From Bacteroidota bacterium (GTDB lineage Bacteria > Bacteroidota > Bacteroidia > JABEUT01), in the NCBI GenBank assembly GCA_013288205.1, contig JABDCH010000001.1:3480-67479 (forward strand): a stretch of DNA of 64,000 nucleotides, given 5' to 3'. The translations under genes and the position numbers were made by a program. Positions 24,571 to 53,312 of this stretch are shown in pieces. Numbering within the stretch: the first letter of the stretch is position 1; each line of letters opens with the position of its first letter. The notes under the pieces are model-generated. The model did not search any database and was not told where the DNA came from. It worked only from the letters and a program-made list of their open reading frames with translations.

Positions 24571-25617
24571 ATGAAATCACCTCTACGGTTCCTTTTTATA
24601 CTGCTTCTTTTAAGCCCCACATTGTTATATGCGCAACAAGCGCCTAAAGCAAATTTTTATACCACATTTCCGTCTGTTTGCGATACTCCACATTCAGTAT
24701 TTTTTTTAAATCAATCAAATGGACCTCCCACCAGTTGTATGTGGTATTTTCCCGGGGCGATACCTGATACATCTACCGCTTATAATCCAACGGTTACTTA
24801 CACACAGTTAGGTTACCACTCCGTCAAATTAGTGGTAAGGAACAATTACGGCTCCGACAGCCTTACCCAAAACAATTACATTTTTGTAGATAGTTTACCG
24901 CATATAAAATTTATTGGTTCAGATACTATATGCTTCGGAAGCAAAGCTACCCTTGAGGTGATTGGCAGCAAGGGATACCACTGGAGCACGGGAGCAACTA
25001 CCTCTGCCATACAAATAACAGGCTTTTTCAGTTTTACTTATACCCTACAGGTAAGCAATGGCGTATGTTATAAGGATACAGGCATTAGCCTTTATGTAGA
25101 TTCGTTGATGCAAATAACTTTTAAAGGCGACACCACCCTTTGCTTGGGCGACAGCACTATTATTTATGCCACCCCGAAATCATCTTCCTATCACTATTTA
25201 TGGAGCACCGGTTCCACCTCCGACAATATAAAGGTATCCGGCAAAAAAACCGGTTCCTATACTTACTATCTGTCAGTTAAACACGATAGTTGTTCGGAAG
25301 ATTCTTTACCTGTAACTATCAATGTATACAATTGCACGGGCATAGAGAACTACCATAACGTTTCGGGTTCAATAGTTGTTTATCCTAACCCAAGCAACGG
25401 TTTATTTAATCTTGAAATTAGGAATGAGGAATTAGGAGTTAATAATACAGTGGAGGTTTACAATATGCTTGGAGAAAAAGTGTATTCACGATTCTCCGCT
25501 TTCAACTCTCCATTTTCAATTAATTTAAGTGGCGAGCCCAACGGTATTTACCTGTACAGGGTAATTAATGAAATGGGAGATTTAATTGGTACAGGAAAGC
25601 TATCTATCCAAAAATAA
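24571..25617 (+). CDS. Secreted Ig/PKD-like repeat protein with T9SS type-A C-terminal sorting domain
   Basis: Signal peptide MKSPLRFLFILLLLSPTLLYAQQ. Repeated ..GYHWSTGATTSAIQI.. and ..YHYLWSTGSTSDNIKV.. units. C-terminal VYPNPSNGLFNLEIRNEE...VEVYNMLGEKVYS...GIYLYRV...GKLSIQK. Confidence 0.8.
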   Translation: MKSPLRFLFILLLLSPTLLYAQQAPKANFYTTFPSVCDTPHSVFFLNQSNGPPTSCMWYFPGAIPDTSTAYNPTVTYTQLGYHSVKLVVRNNYGSDSLTQNNYIFVDSLPHIKFIGSDTICFGSKATLEVIGSKGYHWSTGATTSAIQITGFFSFTYTLQVSNGVCYKDTGISLYVDSLMQITFKGDTTLCLGDSTIIYATPKSSSYHYLWSTGSTSDNIKVSGKKTGSYTYYLSVKHDSCSEDSLPVTINVYNCTGIENYHNVSGSIVVYPNPSNGLFNLEIRNEELGVNNTVEVYNMLGEKVYSRFSAFNSPFSINLSGEPNGIYLYRVINEMGDLIGTGKLSIQK

Positions 25618-25647
25618 ACTATATATTTATAACTAACCACCTCTACT

Positions 25648-27402
25648 ATGAAAGCAAAGAATTTACTAAAATCATTTATTTGTTTCATTTTATTATGTAG
25701 TTCTTCACTTGCTTTTGCCCAGTCGTGGAATTGGGGAAGAGCAGGATACGGTGCAGGTTTAAAACCTCAATGCTATTGCACATCTGTAGCTTCAGATATG
25801 TCGGGGAATGCATACATCACAGGTTACTATTCTAGTCAAGTATCATTTGGCTCCGATACTTTATCTAACAATGGTACTAATAGTGCTTTTCTTGCCAAAT
25901 ATGCTCCGAACGGAAACTTGATTTGGGCCACTCAAGCCCTTAGTGATAGTGTATATTCAACTGGTTATGGATATTCTGTAGCGACAGATGCATCAGGTAA
26001 CAGTATCGTTACTGGGAGTTTTACCGGAATAATTACGTTTGGAAACTACCAGCTATCTTCAGTATATGATTATAATGCTTTCTTTCTAGTTAAATATGAC
26101 CCCAGTGGAAATGTTCTTTGGGCAAAACAATCTGTCACTTCTATTGGGAACTATTACATACAAACATATGGATACTCTGTTACAACTGATAAAAACAACA
26201 ATATATATGTAGCAGGCAGCTTTTCAGATACCATATGGGTAGGAAACTATGAGTTAACTACAGCAGGTCAATCGGCTCCATTCCTTGTTAAATATGATGC
26301 GAATGGAAATGTGCTGTGGGCAAAAACAGCCAATACCCGTTCTGCCAAATCATCTTCATCTGCCATTTCTGTTACTGCTGATAGCAAAGGAAACGCTTAC
26401 CTTACAGGTAGTTTTACGGGCGATTTTTTATTTAACTCCCACAGCCTGGTGAGTCTCAATGTCCCTTCTGCCTTTTTAGTTAAGTATTCGGGCAGTGGCA
26501 ACGTAGTGTGGGCTAAACAGAGTGACAATATAACTCTTGTTACTAGTGAGGCATCCGCAACTTCGGTTATTACGGATATTGTAAACAATGTGTATATCAC
26601 CGGCAGCTTTTATGATAGTGTGAAATTTGGTTCTCAAATCCTTTATTCTCCCAATTATTATTATAATTCTTATGGCTCTGCCTTTTTAACAAAGTACGAT
26701 ACCAATGGAAATGTTATCTGGGCTAAGCAATCATCCTTGGGAATGAGTGGCAACTCATTAACCGCAGACCCGTCAAGTTATGCTATATACCTTGGTACAA
26801 CTAATAACTTAGTTGACACTACATTCTCTTTTAGCAAGTTTTCACTCCATATTGCTCCCTGGGCCGACAACAGTAGTTTTTTATGGAAGTTCGATACCGC
26901 CGGCATTGCCATTTGCGGCTCTGCATTAGAAAATGCCGGTTATAATAATACGACAAGTATATGCTGTACCTCTGCAAGTGGATTGGTCTATCTTTACATG
27001 GCAGGGAACTTTATTAATACCGACTCAGTTACCTGTGGACCTGATATTCTGTTCTCGTACAATGGTGGGTATTCAAACATATTCGTTGCCCGCTGGAACA
27101 ACTGCGCTGCCGATGCAGGAATAAATGATGTGAAAGGTGAAAGTGAACAGGTTAAAGTGTATCCTAACCCAAGCAACGGAGAATTCACCATAGTTGAAAG
27201 TGGAAAGTTGAATATGGAAAATGAAAAAAGTAATATAGAAGTTTACAATATGCTAGGGGAAAAAGTGTATTCACAATTCTCCACTCTCAACTCTCCATTT
27301 TCAATTAATTTAAGTGATGAGCCCAACGGAGTTTATCTGTACAGGGTAATCAATGAATCAGGAAGTTTAATTGGAAATGGGAAATTAGTGATTGAGAAAT
27401 AG
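25648..27402 (+). CDS. SBBP-type beta-propeller repeat protein with T9SS type-A C-terminal sorting domain
   Basis: Signal peptide. About 9 repeats of the ...D.SGN.Y.TG.F.......G........AFL.KY...GN.LWAK pattern. C-terminal VYPNPSNGEFTIVESGKLNMENEKSNIEVYNMLGEKVYSQFSTLNSPFSINLSDEPNGVYLYRV. Confidence 0.85.
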   Translation: MKAKNLLKSFICFILLCSSSLAFAQSWNWGRAGYGAGLKPQCYCTSVASDMSGNAYITGYYSSQVSFGSDTLSNNGTNSAFLAKYAPNGNLIWATQALSDSVYSTGYGYSVATDASGNSIVTGSFTGIITFGNYQLSSVYDYNAFFLVKYDPSGNVLWAKQSVTSIGNYYIQTYGYSVTTDKNNNIYVAGSFSDTIWVGNYELTTAGQSAPFLVKYDANGNVLWAKTANTRSAKSSSSAISVTADSKGNAYLTGSFTGDFLFNSHSLVSLNVPSAFLVKYSGSGNVVWAKQSDNITLVTSEASATSVITDIVNNVYITGSFYDSVKFGSQILYSPNYYYNSYGSAFLTKYDTNGNVIWAKQSSLGMSGNSLTADPSSYAIYLGTTNNLVDTTFSFSKFSLHIAPWADNSSFLWKFDTAGIAICGSALENAGYNNTTSICCTSASGLVYLYMAGNFINTDSVTCGPDILFSYNGGYSNIFVARWNNCAADAGINDVKGESEQVKVYPNPSNGEFTIVESGKLNMENEKSNIEVYNMLGEKVYSQFSTLNSPFSINLSDEPNGVYLYRVINESGSLIGNGKLVIEK

Positions 27403-27747: not shown

Positions 27748-30700
27748 ATGAAACAAAAATTACTGATATTATTATTGCCCGCGTTTCTTTATATTACAGG
27801 GATCAATGCTCAAAATGTTCGATTCCCGCTCTATAACCCTAATGGCAACAATACAGGGGTAAAAGATCAAAACACTACTGAAAGCTTAGTTTATTCATGG
27901 GATTCTACCTTAGGCTCTGTTCAAAAACAAGTAAATGCAAGCAATCAAAATTTTAATGCATTCATTCAGAACTACCAAACCTATCTCGATTCGGAACGTT
28001 CAGCCATCTACCCACAAGTAAAGAAAGGCAAATTAAATACTTCCAATTTTCAGCCTTACATTAATAATAAAAAACTAGCGCTGGTTGAGCTCTACAATAA
28101 TTTTTCCAATAATAAAAATAACCTGAAAACACCTAAGAGGTTATTTCCTACGTATAATGCCCCCACCTGCGATTCTGCCTGCACCAATATGAATTTTATA
28201 ACCGGAGATTTTACCGGGTGGTATGGGTATTACGAGGTTAATAGCTCAGGGGTTAATAACTTCAATTTTACCGGTATAACCGGGGGGTATTTAGGCGCCG
28301 TTAATAAAGCCTGTTTCGACCCCAATACCAGCAGCTATCAAATGCATATTACTACAGGCGGCAATGACTATCTGCTACAAACTTATGCCAGAATTAGCAT
28401 GTCGCAGGTATCGCCCTGGGGGTTTGGTAATTCGGTGATGTTGGGAGATAGCACCATTCCTAACTCGGGTATGGCTATATTAAGTCAAAAATTCCAGGTT
28501 ACCGCCGTTACCAATAGCATAACGTATGCCTATGCCATCCTTATAGAAAACCCTTCAAGTCATAGCTATCATGAGCAGCCATTTTTTAGTGTAACCCTGT
28601 TCGATTCCAGTGGTGATACGATATCAAACTGCGGGAAATATTTCGTTTCCGCCGGTCCCGGACTGCCTGGCTTTAAAGGAATATGGTATTCTCCGGAAGG
28701 AGATACTGTGTATTGGAGAAATTGGACACAAGTTAACGTTCCGCTCGATAAATATGTAGGCCAATGCGTAACTATCCAATTTATGGTTGGTGACTGTTCA
28801 TTGGGCGGGCACTTTGGATATGCCTATGTGGATGCATCGTGCGAACAGTTTTCCATTAAAGCGTCTTCCCCCACAGGTATTATATGCGGCCGGCACGGAA
28901 CGGTCACACTCAGTGGTCCTTTTGGTGCATCGGCCTATCAATGGTCAGGCCCCAAAGGTGGTATACTTAGTAGCGACACCATTGAAAATATAACTGTGGA
29001 CAGTGCAGGCCAATATACCCTGATACTAACCCCTGTTACGGGCGATTTGTGCCAGGATACGCTTCATTATACTGTAAAAGGACTCGATTCTCTGGTTGCA
29101 ACTGCTGCCGTTAACAGCCATATAGCTTGTTTCGGGGGAACCGGAACCGGAATAGCAAAGGCCATTAACGGATATAGCCCCTACGGATATCAATGGACGG
29201 CCCCAGGCGGAACAAATGCCATAGGTACAGGTCTTGTTGCAGGTAACTATACTGTAACCATAACAGACTCTAACGCTTGCTCGGCTACAGCTACTTTAGT
29301 AATGACCCAACCCACCCAATTAACTGCCACCACAAAAATTACACCTGCCACTTGCGGCAACAGTAATGGAACAGCTACTGCCAATCCGAACGGAGGCGTG
29401 GGACCATACGTTTATGCATGGGCGCCGGGTGGCCAAACCAACAAAACAGCCACCAATCTTTCATCTAAAACTTACACATTAACAGTTACCGATAAAAACG
29501 GTTGTACTACTACTGCAACGGCCGTTATACCTCCTTCTGTTGTTACAGCCGCCGTAAACGCAACCACATCGGTAAGTTGTTTCGGAGGTAGTGATGGAAC
29601 AGCCACTGTTACACCCAATGGAGGTATATCGCCTTATGCTTATTCCTGGTCACCTAAGGGAGGCACCGGTGTTACGGCCACCGGGTTGAGTGTCGGAAGT
29701 TATACTGTAACCGTAACCGACAGCAGCGGATGTACAACCACCGCGGTGGGTACTGTTGCTCAGCCTGCAGTATTGGTGGCAAATATAAGCGGAATTAATA
29801 AAATATTATGTAACGGAGGCGTAGGAACCGCCACCGCCGCAGGAAGCGGGGGAACAGCACCCTACAACTACGCCTGGTCACCTATCGGCGGAACCGCTGC
29901 TATCGGAACAGGATTATCGGTGGGAACTTATACGGTAAACGTAACTGACAAAAATGGATGTACAGCCTCTACCAAGGTAGTTATGACGCAGCCTGCAGCA
30001 ATCAGCTACGTTGTAAGTTTCACCAAAGCTACATGCGACCAGGCCAACGGAACCGCCAGCATTGCAGTGGCCGGAGGAGCAACCCCTTATACGTATGCAT
30101 GGAATCCTTCCGGCGAAACCACGGCAACCGCCACAGGACTGAAAGCAGGAACCTATAATGTTTCCGTTAACGACAATAATAATTGCACAGCCAGTGCAAC
30201 GGTAACAGTTACACAACCTACCCTGGTTACAGCCAGTGTTACTATCAACAGCCAGGTAAGCTGCAATAATGGTGCCGATGGATCGGGCTCTATTACGGCC
30301 TCCGGCGGAACAACTCCTTATGTCTATAACTGGAATCCGGGTGGAAATACCAATGCCAACGCGACCGGCCTGTTCGCTTTAAGTTATACGATAACGGTAA
30401 CCGATGCTAACGGATGTACCGCTACCGCTGATGCATCGCTCACGGAACCTACTGCCATACTGGTTAACATTACGGAACCCAGACTCATTTGTAAAGACAG
30501 TACAGGGGATTTATTTGCCAATGCATCCGGCGGAGCCCCCCCTTTTAAATATGCATGGAGCGCAGGATGTTTAGCCACCACCAGTACAGCCCAGATAACT
30601 CCGATTACAACCATCAACTATTCGGTAGTTGTAACCGATGCTCATGGATGTACGGCAAGCGCGCAAATTATCCTTCAATTCGGACCATCGTTTGCTTCCG

Positions 30701-31722
30701 AAATAACCGGTAAGAAATCAGTCTGCATTGGCGATTCTACATTCCTGTGCGCCAAAGCACTGGGCGGAGTGGGTTTAGATACTTATATATGGGAACCCTC
30801 CGGCAACACTAACTCGTGTGTATATATTGCTCCGGGCAATGTCTCGTCTGTCGATTATACTGTTGCAGTTGTAGATGGCTGCGGTGCTACTTCTACGGTA
30901 AGCACCACCATTACTACCGACCCCTACCCTTCCGTTAACATGTATGCCAATTTTTATGATGGTTGCGCCCCTTTCTGTATGCAATTTCATAACGCATCCA
31001 CTATACCGCTTGGAAAACTGGTACAATACAATTGGATACTTGGAAACGGGGATACCCTGAGCTCAGAGAACCCGCTCTATTGTTATAAATCAAGCGGTCA
31101 ATTTGATGTAACTCTTGCTGTAACATCAGACAGTGGCTGCAGCGCAAGCCTGACTAAGAAAGGCATGATTACGGTATACAGCGCTCCGCAGGCTGCCTTT
31201 ACCTATTCACCTCAGCCGGTAACCATCCTTACTCCTACTGTCCAGTTTACCGATGAAAGCCGCGACAAATATGGTATCGCTTATCACTGGTGGACTTTTG
31301 GCGATGGCACTGATTCAATCAGTAACACAACAAATCCTACCCACACTTACCAGGACACAGGCACCTACTGTGCAAATCTGATTGTAATGAATGCCCGTGG
31401 CTGTTCAGATACTATAACCAATTGCCTGATTATAGGCCCTGCCTTTACACTATATATTCCTTCCGCCTTTACGCCCAATGGTAACGGACTGAATGATGTG
31501 TTTAAACCGGTAGGCGAATACATCAAAAATTTTGATATGTATATTTTCGATAGGTGGGGTATGGAAATATACCATACTTCCGATATGAATACGGGCTGGA
31601 ACGGCGCTGTACACGGAGTTGGCGCAATATGCCAGGAAGATACCTATATCTATAAAATAACCGTAACCGACTCGCAGGGCACCCTGCATTCCTATGTGGG
31701 TAATGTGAGCCTGCTGAAATAA
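27748..31722 (+). CDS. Giant cell-surface adhesin (1324 aa), paralog of 3960-7943: SprB repeats, PKD domain, gliding-motility type-B C-terminal domain
   Basis: Signal peptide MKQKLLILLLPAFLYITGINAQ. The same Cys-bracketed N-terminal domain (CDSACTNMNFITGDFTGWYGYY...VDASCEQFSI). SprB repeats. C-terminal YIPSAFTPNGNGLNDVFKPVG...FDRWGMEIYHT...GNVSLLK. Confidence 0.9.
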   Translation: MKQKLLILLLPAFLYITGINAQNVRFPLYNPNGNNTGVKDQNTTESLVYSWDSTLGSVQKQVNASNQNFNAFIQNYQTYLDSERSAIYPQVKKGKLNTSNFQPYINNKKLALVELYNNFSNNKNNLKTPKRLFPTYNAPTCDSACTNMNFITGDFTGWYGYYEVNSSGVNNFNFTGITGGYLGAVNKACFDPNTSSYQMHITTGGNDYLLQTYARISMSQVSPWGFGNSVMLGDSTIPNSGMAILSQKFQVTAVTNSITYAYAILIENPSSHSYHEQPFFSVTLFDSSGDTISNCGKYFVSAGPGLPGFKGIWYSPEGDTVYWRNWTQVNVPLDKYVGQCVTIQFMVGDCSLGGHFGYAYVDASCEQFSIKASSPTGIICGRHGTVTLSGPFGASAYQWSGPKGGILSSDTIENITVDSAGQYTLILTPVTGDLCQDTLHYTVKGLDSLVATAAVNSHIACFGGTGTGIAKAINGYSPYGYQWTAPGGTNAIGTGLVAGNYTVTITDSNACSATATLVMTQPTQLTATTKITPATCGNSNGTATANPNGGVGPYVYAWAPGGQTNKTATNLSSKTYTLTVTDKNGCTTTATAVIPPSVVTAAVNATTSVSCFGGSDGTATVTPNGGISPYAYSWSPKGGTGVTATGLSVGSYTVTVTDSSGCTTTAVGTVAQPAVLVANISGINKILCNGGVGTATAAGSGGTAPYNYAWSPIGGTAAIGTGLSVGTYTVNVTDKNGCTASTKVVMTQPAAISYVVSFTKATCDQANGTASIAVAGGATPYTYAWNPSGETTATATGLKAGTYNVSVNDNNNCTASATVTVTQPTLVTASVTINSQVSCNNGADGSGSITASGGTTPYVYNWNPGGNTNANATGLFALSYTITVTDANGCTATADASLTEPTAILVNITEPRLICKDSTGDLFANASGGAPPFKYAWSAGCLATTSTAQITPITTINYSVVVTDAHGCTASAQIILQFGPSFASEITGKKSVCIGDSTFLCAKALGGVGLDTYIWEPSGNTNSCVYIAPGNVSSVDYTVAVVDGCGATSTVSTTITTDPYPSVNMYANFYDGCAPFCMQFHNASTIPLGKLVQYNWILGNGDTLSSENPLYCYKSSGQFDVTLAVTSDSGCSASLTKKGMITVYSAPQAAFTYSPQPVTILTPTVQFTDESRDKYGIAYHWWTFGDGTDSISNTTNPTHTYQDTGTYCANLIVMNARGCSDTITNCLIIGPAFTLYIPSAFTPNGNGLNDVFKPVGEYIKNFDMYIFDRWGMEIYHTSDMNTGWNGAVHGVGAICQEDTYIYKITVTDSQGTLHSYVGNVSLLK

Positions 31723-32194: not shown

Positions 32195-33115
32195 CTAATA
32201 GTATTTGTCGGTTAGATAAACTAAAATCTGGGCCTTGTATTTTTTGTATTTACGCTTAAATGCGGAATTTTTTTTTACCCATTTCATTAAATCTTGCCTC
32301 CAGTAAAAATACCAATGCCATTTTATATTACCACGCAATTTATTTTCATCCATCCGCTTCACCGAATAAACATGCTGTAGGAAATAATCATTCGGATATT
32401 CATAATACAATCCGAATTTCTCGGGCTTGAAGTCCGGAAGGTATGCAGTACCGAAAAGCCAATCCCACAAAGAAAATTTAGTGGAGAAGTTGGCAAAGAA
32501 AACCTGGTTGTAATCGGCATGGTGCCATTGGTGCATTTCGGGGCCGTTGATTACCTTTTTGAATTTACCCAGGCTCACATTAATGTTAGAATGGATAAAC
32601 ATTCCCCACATGGCATCTATCAATGCTTTTATGGGAACAATAATAGGATTTGCTCCCAGTAAAATAATAGGCGCAAACTCAATGGTTTGGTTAATGATAA
32701 TTTCAGCTATATGCGAACGTGAACCGGACAGCCAATCCACTTCTTTATTGGAATGGTGTGCCTCATGCGTGCGCCATAAAAGCTTTGAGTTGTGCTGCCA
32801 GCGGTGAAACCAGTAGATGTAAAAATCGTGGGTGATGAGAAAAAATAACACTTGCGCCGCAATGGGCCAGTTGGTTACAATATGCAACGAGGAGAGATGG
32901 TAGTGCTGGTCTATCGGATAAATAATATAACTGAAGATAAGTATCTTCAAAAAGAAACTTTGAATTAATGTGTACCAGACAAAGTCTACAAAAAAGCCCT
33001 CCCTGAAAATAGGGAGGCCTTTTCGGTAAGGAAATATCCGCTCCAGCAAAATAATCACAAGCGCGGTTGTTATAAGCAGCGCGGTTGTGACTATTTCAAC
33101 TGAAGCTAAAGACAT
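32195..33115 (-). CDS. Fatty-acid hydroxylase / sterol desaturase superfamily membrane enzyme (di-iron His-box)
   Basis: Histidine boxes HDFYIYWFHRWQH, HEAHHS and HQWHH. N-terminal TM helices. Confidence 0.8.
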   Translation of the reverse strand: MSLASVEIVTTALLITTALVIILLERIFPYRKGLPIFREGFFVDFVWYTLIQSFFLKILIFSYIIYPIDQHYHLSSLHIVTNWPIAAQVLFFLITHDFYIYWFHRWQHNSKLLWRTHEAHHSNKEVDWLSGSRSHIAEIIINQTIEFAPIILLGANPIIVPIKALIDAMWGMFIHSNINVSLGKFKKVINGPEMHQWHHADYNQVFFANFSTKFSLWDWLFGTAYLPDFKPEKFGLYYEYPNDYFLQHVYSVKRMDENKLRGNIKWHWYFYWRQDLMKWVKKNSAFKRKYKKYKAQILVYLTDKYY

Positions 33116-33118
33116 AAA

Positions 33119-34018
33119 TTATTTGGTTTCCTGTAAGGTTTCAGAGTTTTGTCTTCTTAATCTTTTGCGGGCGCCCAATTCGCTTTCGTATACTTTCTTA
33201 ACTCCGTCGCCAATGGCAATTTCAAAATCCCTAATATCCCTTACCATACGTTGCATACCTTGTGGTTCAACCGATGCAGCGTGGTCAGAACCCCACATAG
33301 CGCGGTCGAGCGTAAAATGCCTTTCAACAAAGGTAGCGCCTAATGCTACGGCACAAACGGTAGGCGACAAGCCTGTTTCGTGGCCTGAATATCCAATCGG
33401 AGTTTCAGGGTACATTTCCTCAAGCGTGTTTATCATCTTTAAATTTAATTCCTTCGGAGGACATGGATAAGCTGAGGTGGAATGTGCAATAAGTACATTA
33501 TCCAGGCCGAATTTATTGGTAGCGGCAGTTATTTCATCCATGGTTGACATTCCGGTGGAAAGAATATAAGGCTTGCCGGTAGATTTCACTTTTGAAATCA
33601 ACGAAAAATCGGTGAGCGAAGCAGATGCCATTTTATATACCGGTGTATCGAATTGTTCCATAAAATCAACGGCTTCTTCATCCCAGCAGGAAGCAAACCA
33701 ATCAATGCCGCGCAATTTACAATGAAAATCAATCTCATCATATTCGGCTTTGCCAAATTCTATTTTATGCCTGTAATCAATGTAGGTCATTCTGCCCCAA
33801 GGGGTATCTCTCTCCATATACCATTGGTCTTTGGGAACACACAGTTCAGGAGTGCGTTTTTGAAACTTCACCGCATCGCATCCGGCAGCAGCAGCTTCGC
33901 TGATTAATTTTTTGGCTATTTCTACCGAACCATTGTGGTTAATACCCACTTCAGCAATAATGTATACCGGCTCTCCGTAGCCTATACTCCTTTTATCCCT
34001 GATTTTGATTGTTTTCAT
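33119..34018 (-). CDS. NeuB-family synthase (N-acetylneuraminate / pseudaminate / SpsE-like PEP-condensing enzyme), TIM-barrel part only
   Basis: N-terminus IKIRDKRSIGYGEPVYIIAEVGINHNGSVEIAKKLISEAAAAGCDAVKFQK is typical of NeuB/SpsE. At 299 aa it lacks a C-terminal SAF domain. Confidence 0.8.
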   Translation of the reverse strand: MKTIKIRDKRSIGYGEPVYIIAEVGINHNGSVEIAKKLISEAAAAGCDAVKFQKRTPELCVPKDQWYMERDTPWGRMTYIDYRHKIEFGKAEYDEIDFHCKLRGIDWFASCWDEEAVDFMEQFDTPVYKMASASLTDFSLISKVKSTGKPYILSTGMSTMDEITAATNKFGLDNVLIAHSTSAYPCPPKELNLKMINTLEEMYPETPIGYSGHETGLSPTVCAVALGATFVERHFTLDRAMWGSDHAASVEPQGMQRMVRDIRDFEIAIGDGVKKVYESELGARKRLRRQNSETLQETK

Positions 34019-34110
34019 AGTGTTGATTTTTATAAAGGTTTAATTACTGTTTTCTATTTTAATTTGCTTTGTGATTGAACATTCATCACTCATCATTTAT
34101 AATTCATCAT

Positions 34111-34914
34111 TTAAATGGCCGTCCATCCCCCGTCTACCACCAGGTTAGCGCCTGTCATATACGAAGAAGCGTCGCTGGCAAGGAACACAATGGCTCCCTG
34201 ATAGTCGGTAGGCGCAGCCATTCTTTTTAATAAGGTGCGCTTGCTGTAATTCTTTACAAAATAGCTGTCCTGGTTATTTTCCACTCCACCCGGTGAAAGG
34301 GTATTTACCCGCACATTTTTATCGCCCCAGTACGATGCCAAAAATTTAGTAAAACTAATTACGGCCCCTTTGGTTACCGGGTACGAAACCGATTTGAAGA
34401 AACGTTGGTGGCCGGCTTCATTTTTATAAATGCTTTGGTCGGGGGCCACCATCCCATAAGTAGATGCAATATTGATGATACTGCCTTTTTTCTTTTCGGC
34501 CATTACAGTACCCAGTACTTGCGAGCACAGAAACACACCCGTAATATTTACCTGGATCGATTTATCCCAAAGTTCGATCGGGTAGTTTTCAAACTTGCTT
34601 TGCTCGGCTGCTGCAGCAGGGTTTTCAAACATATCGTTAACGGCGGCATTGTTTACCAAAATATCGATGGTTCCATATTTCTGTAAAATCTTTTCTTTGG
34701 CTGCACGAAGGGAGTGTACGTTGGTTACATTCACGCCCAGCCCCATGTGCTGGCTACCCATTTGCATGGCAAATGTTTTGCATTTAGCATCGTCCATATC
34801 GGCCACCACTACGCTGGCACCCGCTTCGGCCAAGGCTTTGCAATGCTCCTTACCCAATAGGCCGCATCCGCCCGTAACAACCGCTATTTTATTTTCCAGT
34901 GAAAACATCTTCAT
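34111..34914 (-). CDS. Short-chain dehydrogenase/reductase (classical SDR)
   Basis: Cofactor motif VTGGCGLLG. The NNAA motif and the YxxxK region (SYPVTKGA) are present. Confidence 0.85.
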   Translation of the reverse strand: MKMFSLENKIAVVTGGCGLLGKEHCKALAEAGASVVVADMDDAKCKTFAMQMGSQHMGLGVNVTNVHSLRAAKEKILQKYGTIDILVNNAAVNDMFENPAAAAEQSKFENYPIELWDKSIQVNITGVFLCSQVLGTVMAEKKKGSIINIASTYGMVAPDQSIYKNEAGHQRFFKSVSYPVTKGAVISFTKFLASYWGDKNVRVNTLSPGGVENNQDSYFVKNYSKRTLLKRMAAPTDYQGAIVFLASDASSYMTGANLVVDGGWTAI

Positions 34915-34915
34915 A

Positions 34916-36265: not shown

Positions 36266-36273
36266 AATATATT

Positions 36274-37191: not shown

Positions 37192-37192
37192 A

Positions 37193-38050: not shown

Positions 38051-38052
38051 AA

Positions 38053-39923: not shown

Positions 39924-40274
39924 ACACGAATTTTTATCTGCACCACTCTCTGAATTACCCGCAAAATATATGATTGAACGATTCTGCATTCGAATTACTT
40001 TAAAAGGGGGTTGCGAGGGATGAATCTGTACATACTATTGTTTTGATATAAAAACATGGTAATGAATGCACAATCAATTAATTGACAATGCAATTTAAGA
40101 AAATTCCGGTTTTCTCTACCGTTAAAGAGTCCTTTTTAAGATAGACCAGTCCAATTTTATTATATTGAACTGACAGTGAATTATTTATGCCGTAGTGGAA
40201 GAAAAATTTACGGGGGAGACGACTTGAGCTGCAATTACATTGCATTATGTTACTGATACACACATTATTTTCGG

Positions 40275-44573: not shown

Positions 44574-45896
44574 CTATTCCACCGAAAGCATCTTTATCCT
44601 TTTGGCATAAGGCCCGGCCAGCATAGAGCAGATGAATGAAAAGGTGCGGTTTTGTGGTACAATAAACTCTACCCGGTAAGTGCCCGGCACTTTGGTTCCG
44701 TTCACGAGTGTTTTAATTTTCCTTCCTGCATCATCAAATACTTCTATTTGCACGTGCTGCGTAACAGGTATGGAATACGTTATAGTAGTTGTTCCCCGGA
44801 ATGGATTGGGTACATTTTGCAATAGGGAATATCCGGCCAAATCTTTTACTGTTTCTGTTGCCAGTGTAGAAGATTTAGAGTATTTATATACCCGCTGCCC
44901 CACTGCATAGCCCAAGGTATCGCTTAAAAAGCGCATGCGGTTCAGATTAACCAACAAATTAGAAGGCTTAACCGTATCCCAGGTTTTGCCGCCATTGCTT
45001 GTGTGCAATGCATACGTATTGCCTCCTACCCATCCGTCCGTATCATTTGCAAATCCAATACCCTGGCTCCATCCATAAGGCACTTTGGTAAGTATTTCTT
45101 CCGTCCAGGTTTTGCCCCTGTCGATTGATTTGAAAAACCGAAGCGTATTATTGCTATACAATTCTTCCACTGATACATAGAATACATTGGCAGAAGGATG
45201 GTTGAATTTCCAGCAATGGTTGCCTTGCATACTACCTGTAATTTTCTTTGTCCAGGTTTTACCGCCATCTGCTGTAAAAAGAATAACAGAATAGGATGCG
45301 CCCTCGCTGGAGCTATTACCGCCCACCACAAAGCCTGAATCGGGAGTCATAAAATAGGTATCTATTAACATACCTGCCGAATCCATTTTTTGAGAGTAAA
45401 AGGTTTTTCCCTTGTCGGTGCTTTTCATAAAATAAGCAGGCCCGTCAAACCTTCCTGTTGCCATTACAGTAGTATCATTCACTACTGACATACCGCAAAT
45501 ACCAATGGGCTTCGAACCAATGATGACAGGCAATTGAAGTGTTTTACCACCGTCGGATGTTATATACATAGGGTTGGTATCATTGGTGGGAGCCCAGTTG
45601 CCGGGACCCAAATTACCTACGCAACCGTGGAGTGAATCAAAAAAACCTACACAGCGAAACGACGAGGGTTGATTGATTAATTGCGCCCATGTATTGCCGC
45701 CGTCTTTTGTATTCCATACCTGTCCGCTTACATTTACTACCCAGCCTACTGTGGGATTGATAAACCATACATCATCGTGGCGGAATGTTTGAGCAGGAGA
45801 GTTGGGCAGAAGCTGCCATGACTGAGCAATAGAAAATGAATAGTGAAGAATAAAAAGTACAGAATAAAAAAGTAATTTCAGTTTTTCCATGCGCAA
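44574..45896 (-). CDS. BNR/Asp-box repeat (Ycf48/sortilin-like beta-propeller) protein with T9SS type-A C-terminal sorting domain
   Basis: Asp-boxes TKDGGNTW, TSDGGKTL, STDKGKTF, TADGGKTW, SIDRGKTW, TSNGGKTW. C-terminal LLQNVPNPFRGTTTITYSIP...QIEVFDDAGRKIKTLV...GTYRVEF. Signal peptide. Confidence 0.8.
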   Translation of the reverse strand: MRMEKLKLLFYSVLFILHYSFSIAQSWQLLPNSPAQTFRHDDVWFINPTVGWVVNVSGQVWNTKDGGNTWAQLINQPSSFRCVGFFDSLHGCVGNLGPGNWAPTNDTNPMYITSDGGKTLQLPVIIGSKPIGICGMSVVNDTTVMATGRFDGPAYFMKSTDKGKTFYSQKMDSAGMLIDTYFMTPDSGFVVGGNSSSEGASYSVILFTADGGKTWTKKITGSMQGNHCWKFNHPSANVFYVSVEELYSNNTLRFFKSIDRGKTWTEEILTKVPYGWSQGIGFANDTDGWVGGNTYALHTSNGGKTWDTVKPSNLLVNLNRMRFLSDTLGYAVGQRVYKYSKSSTLATETVKDLAGYSLLQNVPNPFRGTTTITYSIPVTQHVQIEVFDDAGRKIKTLVNGTKVPGTYRVEFIVPQNRTFSFICSMLAGPYAKRIKMLSVE

Positions 45897-45970
45897 TTTA
45901 GGCCTTTATCAACTAATACGTGCTTAATCTTCAAATCGTTAGGTAAATATAAAAATAATACACTTTATAC

Positions 45971-46318
45971 TCAAATCAGTTCGTGCTTTATCTTTTTCGG
46001 GAGGCTTTCAAACACCAATTCGTAGGAGTGGTCTATTATTTCAAGCAGCAGTGCTCGAGGCAAGCCCCCATCCATATATACGGAGTTCCAGTGCTTTTTA
46101 TTCATGTGGTAGCCGGGTATAATTTCACTATATCTTTCCCTTAATTCTACGGCACGTTCAGGGTCGCATTTAGCATTGAAACGATTACCTTCATCAACAC
46201 TCGCTATAAGGAATATTTTTCCACCTACTTTATAAACCAGGGTAAGCTCCCCAAACGGGAAGGTTTCCTCCACGCCTTTTTTCTGAAGACAATAATCGCG
46301 CAATTCTTCTATATTCAT
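45971..46318 (-). CDS. MmcQ/YjbR-family protein
   Basis: MNIEELRDYCLQKKGVEETFPFGELTLVYKVGGKIFLIA...HMNKKHWNSVYMDGGLPRALLLEIIDHSYELV matches the YjbR fold signature. The start is placed at the internal Met; the ORF track extends to 46390. Confidence 0.75.
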   Translation of the reverse strand: MNIEELRDYCLQKKGVEETFPFGELTLVYKVGGKIFLIASVDEGNRFNAKCDPERAVELRERYSEIIPGYHMNKKHWNSVYMDGGLPRALLLEIIDHSYELVFESLPKKIKHELI

Positions 46319-46895: not shown

Positions 46896-46959
46896 GGGAG
46901 CTAAGAACAAGAGTATATAGGGCATCCCCTTTTTCCTCTTAGTTCTTAGCTCTTAACTT

Positions 46960-48639
46960 TTACTTCTGTATTACCAATTTCCCGTCTCCAATTAAGTTGC
47001 CTGTCTCGTCTATAACATGGTATAGATAAATACCATTGGGCTCACCACTTAAATTAATTGAAAATGGAGAGTGGAGAGTGGAGAATTGCGAATACACTTT
47101 TTCCCCAAGCATATTGTAAACTTCTATATTGCTTTTTTCATTTTCCATTTTCAACTTTCCACTTTCAACCATGGTGAATTCTCCATTGCTTGGGTTGGGA
47201 TATACAAGCACGCTGGCATTTTGTGATGAGATAGAAGCTACGCCGTTAGTTAAAGTACAGCTTCGCCATCTGACCACAAAAGTACTATATCCGGCTCCAG
47301 TCCCTAATACAGTATCACCGCTATAAAAGAGGGTATCTCCAAATATACTCGATAAATAAATATACTTACCCAAAGGGTCGGAAGCTACACCATTAGTGGC
47401 TTCTGAGCTACGATTGTCAAGCAGGGAACCGCAAAGAGGGGATCCCGCTGTGTCAAATTCCATTATAAAAGATGAAGTTTCAATTAAAGGATTAGCTAGG
47501 GTGTAACTACCAAAGCTTACTTGTTTAATGTACTTAGCTTCGTAACTGGTTCCTGTCAGATAAATATGATTATATGCATCTGCAGCTAATCCATCGCCTA
47601 TCCATTCCTCAGATGATTTTTCGGCCCAAATAGCATTGCCATTTACATCATATTTAGTTAAAAATATGCTGTATTGTCCGGGTGAAGACAAGGTATGGGA
47701 GCCAAACTGTACATTATTTTCAAAACTCCCCGTGATATAAGGATTTATACCGTCCGTTATTACTGAACTGCCCATACATAAGCCCCCTGCGTTTTGCTCT
47801 GCCCATAATACACTACCCGCTGCCGAGTACTTTACTAAAAAGGCTCCTCCCCCAACCAGTGAATATGAACCAAAAGAAAGAGTATCTGAAAAATATCCGG
47901 TTATAAATGAATTTCCCAATTTATCAGTTGCAACAGAATAAGAACTTCCCCCATAATCAGCCGCTGAAGAAGTTTTAGATTGCTCCGCCCATAACGCATT
48001 TCCATTAGAATCATATTTCACTATAAATACAGCTCGGTCATTTCCCTGGCTCGTATTGAACATGTTCAAGGTATAACTTCCAAAAGATACCGTGTCTTCA
48101 AAATCTCCGGTTGCAAACACATTGTTGAACATATCGGTAGCGATAAAACCCGTACCTGCCAAACTAGTTTTTGTAGGCGCTTGAGATTGTTTTGCCCAAA
48201 GCGGATTCCCATTCGAATCAAATTTTGCCAGGAAAACATCATTACCCAAAGGACTTATTAATGTAGATGCACCTATTTTAATAGTATCACCGAAACTGCC
48301 TGCTATATATACATTTCCCGATTTATCTGTCGTAATACAATCACTGGTATTACTTCCGCTGATCTGCCTTACCCAAACAACGGCTCCTGCCGGGTTATAC
48401 TTAGCCAAATAGGTAACGCTATATTTCCCCATTAACTTGGTATTACCAATATATAAAGTATCCGTTTGGGTAGTCCCGGTAACATAAGCGTTACCACTTC
48501 TATCAGTAGCAACAGGGCATTGCGGGTCAGCAGGAGTTTTTGTAAATGCATTGGCGGTCCATAACCAGCTTTGCCCATGGGAGAATGAAAAATGAAGAAC
48601 TAAGAATGAAAAGCTGAGTAGTAATTTTATGTTTTTCAT
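46960..48639 (-). CDS. SBBP-type beta-propeller repeat protein with T9SS type-A C-terminal sorting domain
   Basis: Signal peptide MKNIKLLLSFSFLVLHFSFSHGQ. Repeats ..DKSGNVYIAGSF...NPLWAKQ. C-terminal VYPNPSNGEFTMVESGKLKMENEKSNIEVYNMLGEKVYSQFSTLHSPFSINLSGEPNGIYLYHV. Confidence 0.85.
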   Translation of the reverse strand: MKNIKLLLSFSFLVLHFSFSHGQSWLWTANAFTKTPADPQCPVATDRSGNAYVTGTTQTDTLYIGNTKLMGKYSVTYLAKYNPAGAVVWVRQISGSNTSDCITTDKSGNVYIAGSFGDTIKIGASTLISPLGNDVFLAKFDSNGNPLWAKQSQAPTKTSLAGTGFIATDMFNNVFATGDFEDTVSFGSYTLNMFNTSQGNDRAVFIVKYDSNGNALWAEQSKTSSAADYGGSSYSVATDKLGNSFITGYFSDTLSFGSYSLVGGGAFLVKYSAAGSVLWAEQNAGGLCMGSSVITDGINPYITGSFENNVQFGSHTLSSPGQYSIFLTKYDVNGNAIWAEKSSEEWIGDGLAADAYNHIYLTGTSYEAKYIKQVSFGSYTLANPLIETSSFIMEFDTAGSPLCGSLLDNRSSEATNGVASDPLGKYIYLSSIFGDTLFYSGDTVLGTGAGYSTFVVRWRSCTLTNGVASISSQNASVLVYPNPSNGEFTMVESGKLKMENEKSNIEVYNMLGEKVYSQFSTLHSPFSINLSGEPNGIYLYHVIDETGNLIGDGKLVIQK

Positions 48640-48731
48640 AATACTTAATTTTCATTACAAAATTAAAAAAAATATGACCTAACATGCTATTATTAACCCC
48701 AAATAAAGTCCCTCGGCCAAGTGGCTTGCAC

Positions 48732-50210
48732 TTACTTATTAAAATCCTTCATCAAATCATTATAGGTATTGCTGAATCCTATTCCGTCATCTACTAATAT
48801 GCGGCTTAATTTTTTATTCTCAGCAAGTCCCCATAGCACAATCTCTTTTAAAAAATAGCGGTCGGTAGCATCTGTATCAGATTGGTATTTATTTATCAAA
48901 TCATCCAGAGGGCCAACTCGGTCAAGTTCTTTGCGGTACTCTTCATCAGTCATGTTATCTACCAGTTCAAAATCTTCCGAAAGATCATTGAACCATGATA
49001 TAACGTCGTAATAAGGACCTTTTACACCCTGCTTTTCCAGTTTCTGTATTTTCGGGAATAAAGCTTCAAACAAGCTCTTCACGGCCATTTGTATCAGGTG
49101 TTCGGCTACGTAGCGGGCTCCTTCTTGTTCGCCTTCATAGGCTATTTCCATCTTGCCGGTAAGCGCCGGAATAATGCCCATAAAATCACCCAGGCGGATG
49201 GTGGTACTCTTAGTATTCTGCTTCAGTAACCGTAGTTCGGCAGCACTAACTAAGTTCTCGTATGCCGATATGCTCATGCGTGCGCTGATGCCGCTCTTGG
49301 GGTCTATAAATTCGCTCTTACGGGCTTCAAAGCCTATCTGTTCAATCAGGTCTTTCGCCAGCGAAGGGACTTTTATTTGCTTATCGCGTGTTTCGTTGCT
49401 CTTTACTTCCTGGGCCGTTATTCGTCTGGCTATTTCTATCGTTTCAGGATAGTGGGTTAATATCTGCGAACCGATGCGGTCTTTCAGGGGAGTTACAATG
49501 CTGCCACGGTTGGTATAATCTTCCGGGTTGGCGGTGAATACAAACTGCACATCGAGCGGGAAACGCAGTTTAAATCCGCGTATTTGCAAATCGCCTTCCT
49601 GCAAAATATTGAAAAGTCCTACTTGTATGCGGGCCTGCAAATCGGGTAATTCATTAATTACAAATATGCTGCGGTTAGCACGGGGTATAAGCCCGAAGTG
49701 AATCACCCGCTCATCGGCATACGATAACTTGAGGTTAGCGGCTTTTATAGGATCCACGTCGCCAATCAAATCGGCAATGGTAACATCGGGTGTAGCCAGC
49801 TTTTCTGCAAAGCGTTCATCACGATGCACCCAATCTATAGGAGTTTGGTCCCCTTGTTTTTCCACCAATTCTTTCGCATGAAACGACAAAGGAGCAAACG
49901 GGTCATCGTTAATTTCTGAATCGGCCACAATGGGCATCCATTCGTCGAGCAGTTGTACCATCAGGCGGGCAAGGCGGGTTTTAGCCTGTCCGCGCAACCC
50001 CAGTAGATTGATGTTGTGCATCGATAAAATGGCTCTTTGCAATTCCGGTATTACGGTAGTTTCGTAACCATAAATACCCTCGAATATTTCTTCCTCGTCT
50101 TTTAATTTGCTGATAAGATTATCGCGAAGCTCCTGCTTAATGTTCCTCGGTTTATATCCTGATTTCTTTAATTCTCCTAAGGTCTTTATCTTCGGTTTGC
50201 CTGTTTCCAT
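48732..50210 (-). CDS. ChlI/BchI-like AAA+ ATPase (Mg-chelatase-type fold), partner of the downstream-encoded vWA protein
   Basis: Degenerate Walker A LLGLRGQAKTRLAR. The Walker B/sensor region IFVINELPDLQARIQVGLFNILQEGDLQIRGFKLRFPLDVQFVFTANPEDYTNRGSIVTPLKDRIG parallels the BchI DE.N.L.D..LL....EG...VER.G...P..F.LV.T.NPEEG.L...LLDRFG layout. Confidence 0.65.
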   Translation of the reverse strand: METGKPKIKTLGELKKSGYKPRNIKQELRDNLISKLKDEEEIFEGIYGYETTVIPELQRAILSMHNINLLGLRGQAKTRLARLMVQLLDEWMPIVADSEINDDPFAPLSFHAKELVEKQGDQTPIDWVHRDERFAEKLATPDVTIADLIGDVDPIKAANLKLSYADERVIHFGLIPRANRSIFVINELPDLQARIQVGLFNILQEGDLQIRGFKLRFPLDVQFVFTANPEDYTNRGSIVTPLKDRIGSQILTHYPETIEIARRITAQEVKSNETRDKQIKVPSLAKDLIEQIGFEARKSEFIDPKSGISARMSISAYENLVSAAELRLLKQNTKSTTIRLGDFMGIIPALTGKMEIAYEGEQEGARYVAEHLIQMAVKSLFEALFPKIQKLEKQGVKGPYYDVISWFNDLSEDFELVDNMTDEEYRKELDRVGPLDDLINKYQSDTDATDRYFLKEIVLWGLAENKKLSRILVDDGIGFSNTYNDLMKDFNK

Positions 50211-50226
50211 AAAAGTTTTATCTGGT

Positions 50227-51342: not shown

Positions 51343-51482
51343 AGGCTATTGTATTACCTTTCAAATATAGTAAATAGAATTAGGAACTTATTCGCGGAGT
51401 AACCGTGACAATTTACAGACGTTCGTATGAACAGATTATTTTGGGAGTGTTTTTGCTAATGTGCCGAAAAAAACGGGTATTC

Positions 51483-53225
51483 CTAGTGCTGTACTATCAT
51501 TTTCCCTTGTCCTATTAAATTACCTGTTGGAGTAATAACCCTATATAGATAGATTCCGTTTGGTTGATTGGAAAGATTAATGATATTGTCACCCTGAACT
51601 TGTTTCAGGGTCGCACCATACACTATTTCTCCCAACATATTGTAAACTTCTATATTACTTTTTTCATTTTCCATATTCAACTTTCCACTTTCAACTATGG
51701 TGAATTCTCCATTGCTTGGGTTGGGATATAAAAGAACACTGGGCTTTTGTAAGGTGGAAATGGAAGGTACTCCATCCTGTTCCCCACAGTTTTGCCAACG
51801 GGCAACATAGGGTACTTCACCTGGTGGAGTCAAGGTATCAGCAGCGCAAAATATGGTATCAGACACGATAGTGCTTGCGGGATAAACATATACACCACTT
51901 TTATCTGTAGCAATTGAAACATAAGCTTTGGCACCATTAAAAAGTAGTGAACCACATATCGCATTACCACCAGTATCAAATTTTATTACAAATGAATTTC
52001 CTTCAGAGTTTTGGGGAGAATTTAAAGTGAATTTTCCAAAAGTAATGCTATCTCTTCCTCCTCCGCCTGCTAAATATATATGGTTGTATTCGTCAGAAGA
52101 AAGCGAATATCCGGTATAATAAGCGGCTGAATTGGGGGGATAGGGGGCGCCTGCACTCTTTGCCCATATTACATTTCCGTTTGCACTGTATTTCACAAAA
52201 AATAATCCGCCACCCACCAATGTATGATTTCCAAAAGAAACAGTATCAGTGAATGCCCCGGTAAGATATACATTTCCGGCATTATCGGTAGTTACGCCAT
52301 ACCCGATAGCACTGTTTCCTGCAGAGGGGATATTAGACTGTCGTGCCCAAAGTACATTTCCACTAGGGTCGTATTTTACGAGAAAAACTTGCCCCATCCA
52401 ATAATTATACAGAATTGGAGAAGTTAACGTATACTTGCCAAAAGTTATCGAATCGTTATAAGAACCTGCAATAAATGAATTTCCATTTAAATCCGTTGCT
52501 ACAGAATAACTTTTATTGGTGAGGCCTCCGGTATGAGTTATACAGGTACCTTGCTTTGCCCATAAAACATTACCATTACTATCATATTTAGCCGTGAAAA
52601 TATTGTAGTTTGTATTATTGGAATTCAACAAAGTAGTTGCGCCAAATTTAAGCGTGTCGAGAAAGTAGCCGGAAATAAAAACATTTTTTGACCTGTCTGT
52701 AGCTAATGCAGTTGAAGTTGTAGAAGCGTAAAAAACAGAATTAGTATTTTCACCAACACCTACTGTTGTCCATAATATATTCCCATTATTGTCGCATTTT
52801 GCCAAAAAGAAATCGCCACCATATGTTGAATAATTATAAGACCCCATTTTAATATTAAAATCAAACCCGCCCGCAACTATTAAATTATTTGAAGCATCTG
52901 TAACAACCGATGAAGCGAAACACCCATTCCCGGGAGAAAAAAATTGTTTTACCCATTGTACATTTCCCGCAGAATTATATTTCATATAATATGCTCCATC
53001 TGATTCAGCATACATGGAGTCTTGCACGGTATCTTTACCAAATGAAACTTCCCAATGAAAAGGTCCTGCTAAAAAAGCATTCCCATTAGCATCTGTTGCG
53101 ACAGAAATTGTTGATATTAGCTTCAAATCTTTCATGTGCGCCTGGCCGCCCCACAGCCAGTTTTGCCCAAAGGAAAATGAAGCACTAAAAATGAAGAACA
53201 GGAGTAATAATTTTACTTTTTTCAT
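51483..53225 (-). CDS. SBBP-type beta-propeller repeat protein with T9SS type-A C-terminal sorting domain
   Basis: Signal peptide MKKVKLLLLFFIFSASFSFGQ (internal Met; the ORF track extends to 53264). Repeats ..DANGNAFLAGPF....GNVQWVKQ. C-terminal LLYPNPSNGEFTIVESGKLNMENEKSNIEVYNMLGEIVYG...GIYLYRV. Confidence 0.85.
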   Translation of the reverse strand: MKKVKLLLLFFIFSASFSFGQNWLWGGQAHMKDLKLISTISVATDANGNAFLAGPFHWEVSFGKDTVQDSMYAESDGAYYMKYNSAGNVQWVKQFFSPGNGCFASSVVTDASNNLIVAGGFDFNIKMGSYNYSTYGGDFFLAKCDNNGNILWTTVGVGENTNSVFYASTTSTALATDRSKNVFISGYFLDTLKFGATTLLNSNNTNYNIFTAKYDSNGNVLWAKQGTCITHTGGLTNKSYSVATDLNGNSFIAGSYNDSITFGKYTLTSPILYNYWMGQVFLVKYDPSGNVLWARQSNIPSAGNSAIGYGVTTDNAGNVYLTGAFTDTVSFGNHTLVGGGLFFVKYSANGNVIWAKSAGAPYPPNSAAYYTGYSLSSDEYNHIYLAGGGGRDSITFGKFTLNSPQNSEGNSFVIKFDTGGNAICGSLLFNGAKAYVSIATDKSGVYVYPASTIVSDTIFCAADTLTPPGEVPYVARWQNCGEQDGVPSISTLQKPSVLLYPNPSNGEFTIVESGKLNMENEKSNIEVYNMLGEIVYGATLKQVQGDNIINLSNQPNGIYLYRVITPTGNLIGQGKMIVQH

Positions 53226-53312
53226 GATCTGTTGATATTCTTTGTACAAATATACAAAAACCACTCACCTACCTCAATCCATCCTTCACTTGTGGTGATT
53301 AACTCAAGCCAA

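Follow-up and report, generated by a model that had tools for sequence, protein, structure and literature searches.

Clustered type IX secretion cargo genes of a Bacteroidota bacterium carry C-terminal-domain coding tails that are mosaics of shared segments

Introduction

The C-terminal domains (CTDs) of cargo proteins of the type IX secretion system (T9SS) are usually seen as slowly diverging protein signals. Here we describe five cargo genes, g1 to g5, in a 64,000-nucleotide stretch of DNA from a Bacteroidota bacterium (contig JABDCH010000001.1, positions 3,480 to 67,479; hereafter "the window"), in which the CTD appears to evolve as a mosaic of exchangeable sub-domain segments.

The closest precedent is the set of KLIKK proteases of Tannerella forsythia, six clustered cargo proteins that belong to different protease classes and have a "virtually identical" CTD (PMC4404884). 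The shared CTD was called unusual and its origin was left unexplained; a sister species has an orthologue with a different CTD (PMC4404884). In Porphyromonas gingivalis, surface proteins of the CTD family undergo domain rearrangement, allelic exchange and gene conversion by recombination (PMC5266723).

The tails described below contain heptanucleotide arrays and, in one gene, a palindrome. Repeats defined at the nucleotide level can be translated in frame as parts of proteins, as are the Rickettsia palindromic elements. The published heptanucleotide repeats (the short tandemly repeated repetitive sequences of cyanobacteria and the TAACTGA repeats) form arrays that are almost all intergenic (PMC4679880).

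Results

Five T9SS cargo genes have related 3' ends

Listing of open reading frames (ORFs), repeat finding and alignment revealed five related 3' ends in the window, those of g4 and g5 lying on the opposite strand. On the plus strand, g1 (24571-25617) encodes a PKD/Ig-like cargo protein of 348 aa with Pfam and NCBIfam matches, g2 (25648-27402) an SBBP beta-propeller cargo protein of 584 aa that is identical to the database protein P0034, and g3 (42542-44533) a cargo protein of 663 aa. On the minus strand, g4 (46960-48639) and g5 (51483-53225) encode SBBP cargo proteins of 559 and 580 aa, the latter identical to the database protein P0020. Each product starts with a Sec signal peptide, continues with a passenger and ends in a type A CTD, a domain that forms a beta-sandwich of seven strands. 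All five CTDs scored above the curated cut-offs of both PF18962 (43.8-56.6 bits; cut-off 27) and TIGR04183 (37-51 bits; cut-off 23). This agrees with a preliminary description of the region, which had proposed five T9SS cargo genes in both orientations. The motifs quoted in that description occur four times each (chance expectation 0), and a search of the 64-kb window with tail profiles (nhmmer and hmmsearch) returned exactly five tail copies and no fragments.

The passengers are unrelated or much more divergent than the tails, as had also been proposed. Those of the three SBBP paralogues, g2, g4 and g5, are 40-44% identical in amino acid sequence, and those of g1 (PKD/Ig) and g3 are unrelated. 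The g3 passenger gave no Pfam family matches and no PDB sequence matches, and its earlier label "beta-helix" is unverified. Similarity between the genes ends within a few codons 5' of the YPNP motif; at the other end, the proteins terminate in KLVIEK, KLMIQK, KLVIQK, KLSIQK and KMIVQH. Some boundaries had to be corrected: the tails of g4 and g5 extend to 47205 and 51731 rather than to 47215 and 51740, and g5 starts at 53225 (an ATG, with a product identical to P0020) rather than at 53264.

Adjoining g5 is g6 (53313-54962, minus strand), a SprB-repeat cargo gene with a divergent type A CTD. It lies outside the cassette and served as an internal control; its tail is 32-39% identical in amino acid sequence to the five tails. 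The window also contains two SprB-repeat genes with type B (CHU_C) CTDs, whose tails are unrelated to the five. No core T9SS machinery gene (SprA/Sov, PorV, PorU or GldKLMN) was found within the window. Judging from the further cargo genes of the window, whose CTDs are of type A or type B, the source organism very likely has a T9SS.

Identity along the tail forms a mosaic

We split the 81-codon tail into three segments on a protein-guided codon alignment: S1 (VYPNP to KVY), S2 (SQFS to INLS) and S3 (EPNG to the stop codon). In g2 the tail (27157-27402) comprises S1 at 27157-27237, a central block at 27238-27270, S2 at 27271-27318 and S3 at 27319-27402. The tail of g3 (44288-44533) is laid out in the same order, at 44288-44368, 44369-44401, 44402-44449 and 44450-44533, as is that of g4 on the minus strand (46960-47205), at 47125-47205, 47092-47124, 47044-47091 and 46960-47043. 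Within S1 and S2, the variable parts (S1v and S2v) of the window type are short heptanucleotide arrays: GTT GAAAGTG GAAAGTT GAAAATG GAAAATG in S1v and TTCTCCA CTCTCAA CTCTCCA TTTTCAA in S2v.

Over the whole tail, identity is 86% for g2-g4, 83% for g3-g4 and 82% for g2-g3, and it falls to 68-75% for g1 against g2-g4, 66-72% for g5 against g2-g4 and 56% for g1-g5. The preliminary description had put it at 90-95% over about 250 bp in all five genes. This does not hold for whole tails (56-86%); values of 90-98% are confined to sub-segments. The core of S1 plus S2 (159 nt) is 90-94% identical at the nucleotide level among g2, g3 and g4 only, that of g3 being 90% identical to those of g2 and g4. S3, the last 84 nt, is 58-73% identical across the tails and 67-71% among g2, g3 and g4.

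The remaining two tails each carry one part of the core. In g5 (tail 51483-51731, minus strand), S1 with part of the central block (51618-51731) is of the g2 type, and S1 is 93% identical to those of g2 and g4. Its S2 (51567-51617) is of a different type ("GATLKQVQGDN", containing ACCCTGAAACAAGTTCAGGGTGAC at 51588-51611) and is 29-33% identical to S2 of g2 and g4 (29% to g2). In g1 (tail 25378-25617, plus strand), the central block with S2 (25453-25533) is of the g2 type, and S2 is 89-93% identical to those of g2-g4 at the nucleotide level; its S1 (25378-25452) is of a different type, "LEIRNEELGVNN", made of (AATTAGG)n, and is 64-69% identical. S3 of g1 lies at 25534-25617 and that of g5 at 51483-51566. 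The genes g1 and g5 are chimeras, and in the alignment both junctions lie inside the block that codes for EVYNMLGEKVY.

The same contrast is seen at synonymous sites. Where residues are conserved, 37 of 46, 42 of 48 and 38 of 45 codons of the core are identical in the three pairs among g2, g3 and g4 (80-88%), compared with 7, 9 and 10 of 20 (35-50%) in the 28 codons of S3 (Fisher p = 5e-4 to 6e-3). The baseline given by the passengers of the SBBP paralogues is 42-51% identical codons, so that core identity exceeds that of the passengers, as had been anticipated. Since the codon identity of S3 is at passenger level, S3 is likely to be old and held by protein-level selection, with the core homogenised much later.

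The longest exact runs shared between tails are 75, 34 and 27 nt (p <= 1e-3 by codon-block permutation of identical runs). A Sawyer-type test on polymorphic sites is powerless with three sequences that share the whole tract, and permutation was used instead. The 75-nt run is common to g5 and g2 and is followed in g5 by an abrupt switch to the unrelated S2. Along the SBBP paralogues, identity in a 60-nt sliding window is about 50% ahead of the core, climbs to 95-100% within it and drops to 52-78% in the last window.

Tails of relatives differ where passengers do not, and the reverse

The genes most closely related to g4 encode P0013 and P0014 and are its positional orthologues, in a conserved synteny with AAA/VWA genes upstream and a 141-aa ORF and YjbR downstream. 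Their passengers are 68-69% identical to that of g4, while their tail cores are 48-56% identical and of wholly different sequence types. At the nucleotide level the passengers are 74% and the cores 61-63% identical, and the core of g4 is 90-94% identical to those of g2 and g3. A core that is less alike between orthologues than the passenger is, and more than 90% identical between non-orthologues of the same genome, reads as a signature of concerted evolution.

The opposite arrangement was found between L007 and L008, Logan assemblies of a sister lineage from different samples. Their flanks and tail are 95.5-99.5% identical at the nucleotide level (the tail 99.5%), whereas the signal peptide and passenger are about 63% (nucleotide) and 49% (amino acid) identical. 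By comparison of these two loci, the difference appears to be an allelic passenger replacement at a fixed locus, with its 3' boundary at the start of the CTD. L007 also has an extra g5-like SBBP cargo gene (2991-4685) between the YjbR and BNR/Ycf48-like genes, which are adjacent in the window (45896-45971) and in L009; this suggests that cargo genes have moved, or been gained or lost, around the locus. At a locus of another lineage, L209, two adjacent cargo genes have tails that are 95% identical at the nucleotide level (86 of 91 codons identical) and passengers that are 39% identical, and the tail of a third cargo gene beside them is different.

A scan of species-representative genomes yielded 79 related tails from about 15 metagenome-assembled genomes (MAGs) of uncultured Bacteroidia. 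None was more than 62% identical in amino acid sequence to the window tails. Among 3,741 tail pairs, g2-g4, g3-g4 and g2-g3 were among the four most similar; the only comparable pair outside the window (0.82) was between two different species. A search of 1.84 billion representative proteins gave, among the matches listed, two g2-type tails at 70% or more: g2 itself and P0038, a protein fragment, compared as protein, that has g2-type S1 and S2 on another SBBP passenger. A few other matches reach 70-71%; two of them, P0135 and P0156, are of other tail types. A degenerate DNA scan with the pattern GGNGARTTYACNATNGTNGARWSNGGNAARYT matched the window and the Joint Genome Institute (JGI) loci L001-L003, and gave no match in genome and metagenome contig collections that lack the source contigs.

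Across the roughly 15 MAGs, types of S2v recur with many types of S1v, which suggests that tails are assembled from modules that can be exchanged. In P0140, from a different species, the S2v array is identical to that of g2 and g3 over 35 nt, and the flanking conserved blocks differ synonymously. A tyrosine recombinase gene (Phage_integrase domain; L211, 3351-4250) lies 47 nt downstream of the P0140 stop codon, which may be coincidence. In L077 (match at 2257-2484), two in-frame stops (TAG TAA) lie inside S2v and the frame is intact afterwards; a pseudogene, an error in sequencing and a disruption that stems from the repeats are possible explanations.

Recognition motifs are not the segments with nucleotide identity

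An AlphaFold2 model of the g2 tail (pLDDT 75.5, pTM 0.65) has seven strands in the sandwich expected of CTDs. In this model S1v corresponds to beta2, a loop modelled with low confidence and the first part of beta3; the conserved central block to the end of beta3, the beta3-beta4 loop (Lb3b4), in which "NMLGE" lies, and beta4; S2v to the end of beta4 through beta5; and S3 to beta6, beta7 and the C-terminus.

Both Lb3b4 and the C-terminus were found experimentally to be important for T9SS recognition in P. gingivalis (PMC11285876). Their motifs were conserved at the protein level in every related tail that we retrieved, and synonymous sites within them differ; the recognition motifs are not the segments with nucleotide-level identity. 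Since divergent CTDs such as that of g6 occur in the same window, identity of the tails at the nucleotide level is unnecessary for secretion. The earlier suggestion that a single cognate recognition partner explains the nucleotide identity is therefore not supported, given that the recognition motifs vary synonymously and that the CTD of g6 shares 32-39% of its residues with the others.

Short-tract exchange probably accounts for the shared cores

These tails combine raised identity that includes synonymous sites, diverged flanks and segments with different relationships, as is characteristic of gene conversion. The probable origin of the pattern is gene conversion in short tracts, or an exchange of modules, between CTD-coding tails, the junctions lying in conserved motif blocks. 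From the 5' end, the tail consists of the YPNPSNG block, S1v (beta2-beta3), the EVYNMLGEKVY block (beta3, Lb3b4 and beta4), S2v (beta4-beta5) and the EPNGIYLYRV block with the C-terminal strands (S3). One S1v allele, with a (GAAAGTG)-type array, and one S2v allele, with a (CTCTCCA)-type array, would have been copied among neighbouring and otherwise unrelated genes by non-reciprocal homologous recombination, in tracts of about 60-160 nt with both ends within the conserved motif-coding blocks. As for direction, g2, g3 and g4 would have received both modules, g5 only S1v and g1 only S2v, while S3 would not have been converted and would have retained its old protein-level conservation. The alignments indicate that the exchanged units are probably sub-domain modules of this size and not a 250-bp cassette. 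Of the ongoing gene conversion or cassette exchange that had been proposed, the exchange is borne out by the codon contrast, the chimeras and the orthologues; the 250-bp unit and the word "ongoing" are not.

Several observations weigh against this explanation. The cores have diverged by 6-10%, which implies that the events are not recent. The identity of S2v over 35 nt between P0140 and the window crosses species, so that conversion within a genome is insufficient by itself and either a nucleotide-level constraint or exchange between species must also act. S1v and S2v of g2, g3 and g4 are roughly complementary, with a predicted stem of 14+6 bp, and the minimum free energy (MFE) z-scores of their cores are low (-3.1, -3.4 and -2.4, respectively). 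Finally, 4 of 80 paired columns are variable compared with 14 of 69 unpaired ones, which fits structural constraint, although the test is biased, the structure having been predicted from these sequences themselves.

One possibility raised by these observations is that the tails are old duplicates whose core is kept by nucleotide-level selection, for an RNA or DNA function such as an S1:S2 stem-loop or heptamers bound by a factor. Over 87 tails, S1 and S2 of the same tail pair better than those of different tails (-17.6 versus -15.5 kcal/mol; permutation p < 2e-4), and 25% of tail cores have a z-score below -2, compared with 6% of passenger controls. However, the orthologues of g4 have completely different cores, so no particular sequence has been maintained over the long term. 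The stem is broken in the chimeras (MFE z of -0.9 for g1 and -1.9 for g5), and in P0140 the identical S2v is joined to a non-complementary S1v. No compensatory pairs were found among g2, g3 and g4. In 82 non-window tails, pairing at the positions of the g2 structure was no better within a tail (42.8%) than between different tails (41.4 +/- 0.8%), which gives no position-specific covariation, and an Rfam search found no match for the tails, only a tRNA. We regard selection of this kind as an unlikely origin of the shared cores, and a structure or function of the repeats as a secondary possibility.

Variable segments are built from heptanucleotides and, in g5, a palindrome

Period-7 arrays are concentrated in the five genes. 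Tandem Repeats Finder located them in the tails of g1 (25416-25441), g2 (27192-27220 and 27278-27297), g3 (44323-44359 and 44409-44428), g4 (47065-47084 and 47134-47166, minus strand) and g5 (51676-51696, minus strand). Other arrays lie in the linker before YPNP in g2 (27130-27157, (GTGAAAG)x4), in the signal-peptide coding region of g4 (48584-48612, minus strand), where (TTTCATT)n is translated as "FSFSFSH", just 3' of the g4 stop codon (46936-46955) and in intergenic DNA (34072-34113). In total, 9-10 of the 11 period-7 arrays of the window are in or next to g1-g5, and of the ten 42-nt stretches of the 64 kb with the strongest 7-nt periodicity, eight fall inside the five tails. The lag-7 periodicity of the g6 tail (0.22) is at background level.

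The related tails have the same make-up. Over 87 tails, S1v has a lag-7 identity of 0.44 and S2v one of 0.41 against a background of about 0.25, none of 84 passenger controls reached 0.5, and heptanucleotide arrays occur in the variable segments of 44-47% of these tails. In 125 CTD tails of related loci, period-7 arrays are 13-fold enriched (0.71 versus 0.054 per kb). At these loci they also occur in intergenic DNA and in signal-peptide coding regions, where cargo genes have (TTTTCAC)n arrays. The unit varies with the type of tail: (CAGTnGT)n is translated as "QSSVVSGQSSV" and (TTAnGAA)n as "IKNYELG". A period of 7 nt cannot stem from codon or protein periodicity, and such repeats are unusual within coding sequence.

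The S2 of g5 contains a different element. ACCCTGAAACAAGTTCAGGGTGAC (51588-51611, minus strand) forms a perfect 8-bp hairpin and is translated in frame as TLKQVQGD. As a 25-mer, this palindrome occurs at least 135 times in 120 metagenome contigs. No copy there is part of a CTD, 108 lie outside ORFs of at least 150 aa, and copies are often found as inverted pairs 25-100 nt apart. In the related loci it is always in frame within a CTD. An element that is abundant outside genes and in frame within CTDs suggests a widespread repetitive extragenic palindrome (REP)-like sequence that has been co-opted in frame.

It could be speculated that the variable segments are selfish or mutationally generated repeats, namely REP-like palindromes and slippage-grown heptamer arrays, which would settle in those CTD strands and loops that tolerate them and would spread as units within and between genomes, like the in-frame Rickettsia elements. 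The periodicity of S1v and S2v, the enrichment of arrays in CTD tails and the mostly extragenic palindrome copies point in this direction. On the other hand, the modules replace homologous segments of equal length to within 1-3 codons, with no clear insertions; S2 of g5 exceeds the g2 type by a single codon, and an insertion relative to its homologues is not evident. No transposase or RAYT gene was seen, and the junctions lie in conserved blocks, as they do in ordinary homologous recombination. We consider this origin improbable as a full account, and it would complement gene conversion rather than exclude it. The repeats may themselves promote exchange: tentatively, the heptamers and REP-like palindromes of the signal-peptide region, S1v and S2v could be portable recombination or diversification modules of the T9SS cargo of this clade. 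If this were true, slippage and template switching would yield new CTD strand sequences, the repeats would supply homology for swaps of tails and passengers between genes and between co-resident species, and the shared cassette would be one product of a nucleotide-level system beyond ordinary paralogue conversion.

Independent assemblies reproduce the window

The contigs encoding P0034 and P0020 come from five JGI metagenome samples and one NCBI MAG record, and DNA was compared for four of the samples. Six JGI contigs (L001-L006), which represent four independent metagenome assemblies, match the window at 99.99-100% identity and are collinear with it, and the gene list of the contig from the fifth sample is in the same order. 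A collapse artefact, which had been raised as a possibility, is thus excluded, the five copies also differing from one another. In L005 (9706-9715), an indel of about 19 nt relative to the window (49603-49631) lies inside an AAA_5 (MoxR-like) gene between g4 and g5, and the gene call is truncated there.

A recent duplication of whole genes or tails followed by divergence, or an assembly collapse, is very improbable: the genes are clustered and g2, g4 and g5 are paralogous, but the passengers of g1 and g3 are unrelated, S3 and the paralogous passengers are synonymously saturated where the core is not, and mutually different copies are reproduced exactly by four assemblies.

The preliminary description had also viewed the inverted tails as substrates for inversions of 20-25 kb. 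This is a theoretical capacity only, with exact runs of 27-75 nt; no such inversion was seen in the four collinear assemblies or in the gene order of the fifth sample. The ORFs scanned contained no recombinase, integrase or invertase domain, and an invertible shufflon was rejected on these two grounds. Slipped-strand phase variation was likewise rejected, the arrays being imperfect (72-100% matches, 3-5 units) and showing no length variation among the assemblies. A diversity-generating retroelement was set aside, as no reverse-transcriptase gene was present among the ORFs scanned, although no search aimed at it was made.

Other features of the window

The type B (CHU_C) CTDs belong to large SprB-repeat/PKD cargo genes at 1-7943 and 27748-31722. 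Two of the type B genes form a 4.35-kb tandem duplication that is 71-87% identical, and an inverted type B paralogue has several stretches of 71-74% identity, the longest (406 nt) including the CTD-coding end. No cassette-like jump in identity was seen among these paralogues. A 90-nt direct repeat, 79% identical, occurs at 58837-58926 and 62514-62603. On the minus strand, the cluster at 32195-41327, flanked on both sides by tail genes, encodes NeuB, an aminotransferase, a split transketolase, a short-chain dehydrogenase, a fatty-acid hydroxylase and glycerophosphotransferase-like proteins. Its probable product is a nonulosonic acid or a surface glycan, and it could bear on the glycosylation of T9SS cargo.

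Discussion

Exchange of sub-domain modules explains in concrete terms how some CTDs, for instance those of the KLIKK proteases, can be "unusually identical". The comparison of tails also tells the parts that are constrained at the protein level (Lb3b4 and the C-terminal strands) apart from those that are freely replaced (beta2-beta3 and beta4-beta5), a distinction that is useful for the design of heterologous secretion tags. Should the make-up from heptamers and palindromes prove to be mechanistic, simple-sequence repeats would be connected with the way in which Bacteroidota diversify their cargo repertoire.

In full-text searches of the literature on CTDs with gene conversion or concerted evolution, we found no report of mosaicism within a CTD, and among the papers found on heptanucleotide repeats none placed them inside CTDs or secretion-signal domains. 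The known (TCAGTnn) arrays, the reverse of TAACTGA, are translated into peptides such as "LSVISYQ", which may be compared with the S1v type "QSSVISHQSSV".

The window genes resemble the KLIKK proteases in being clustered T9SS cargo genes with unrelated passengers and unusually similar type A CTDs, and in having an orthologue elsewhere with a different CTD. They differ from them in several respects. In the KLIKK proteases, the CTDs show virtual identity over 86 aa, and two further shared regions, A and B, precede them. The window tails are 53-86% identical in amino acid sequence over their whole length, with a core of 89-94% in three genes only; they end in GKLxIxK and have neither the KLIKK motif nor shared upstream regions. 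They form a sub-domain mosaic in which the C-terminal third is not homogenised, their passengers are not proteases, and for the KLIKK genes a repeat make-up at the nucleotide level is not described.

As in P. gingivalis, where this happens both within a strain and between strains, homologous recombination would reshuffle modules of T9SS surface proteins, and the passenger swap between L007 and L008 resembles allelic exchange there. In P. gingivalis, however, adhesin and catalytic domains are shuffled and the CTD is simply conserved, whereas in the window genes the CTD itself is a mosaic. The KLIKK proteases and paralogue conversion are known examples of this kind of phenomenon. New, as far as we have found, are the sub-domain mosaic and the modules built from heptamers and a palindrome.

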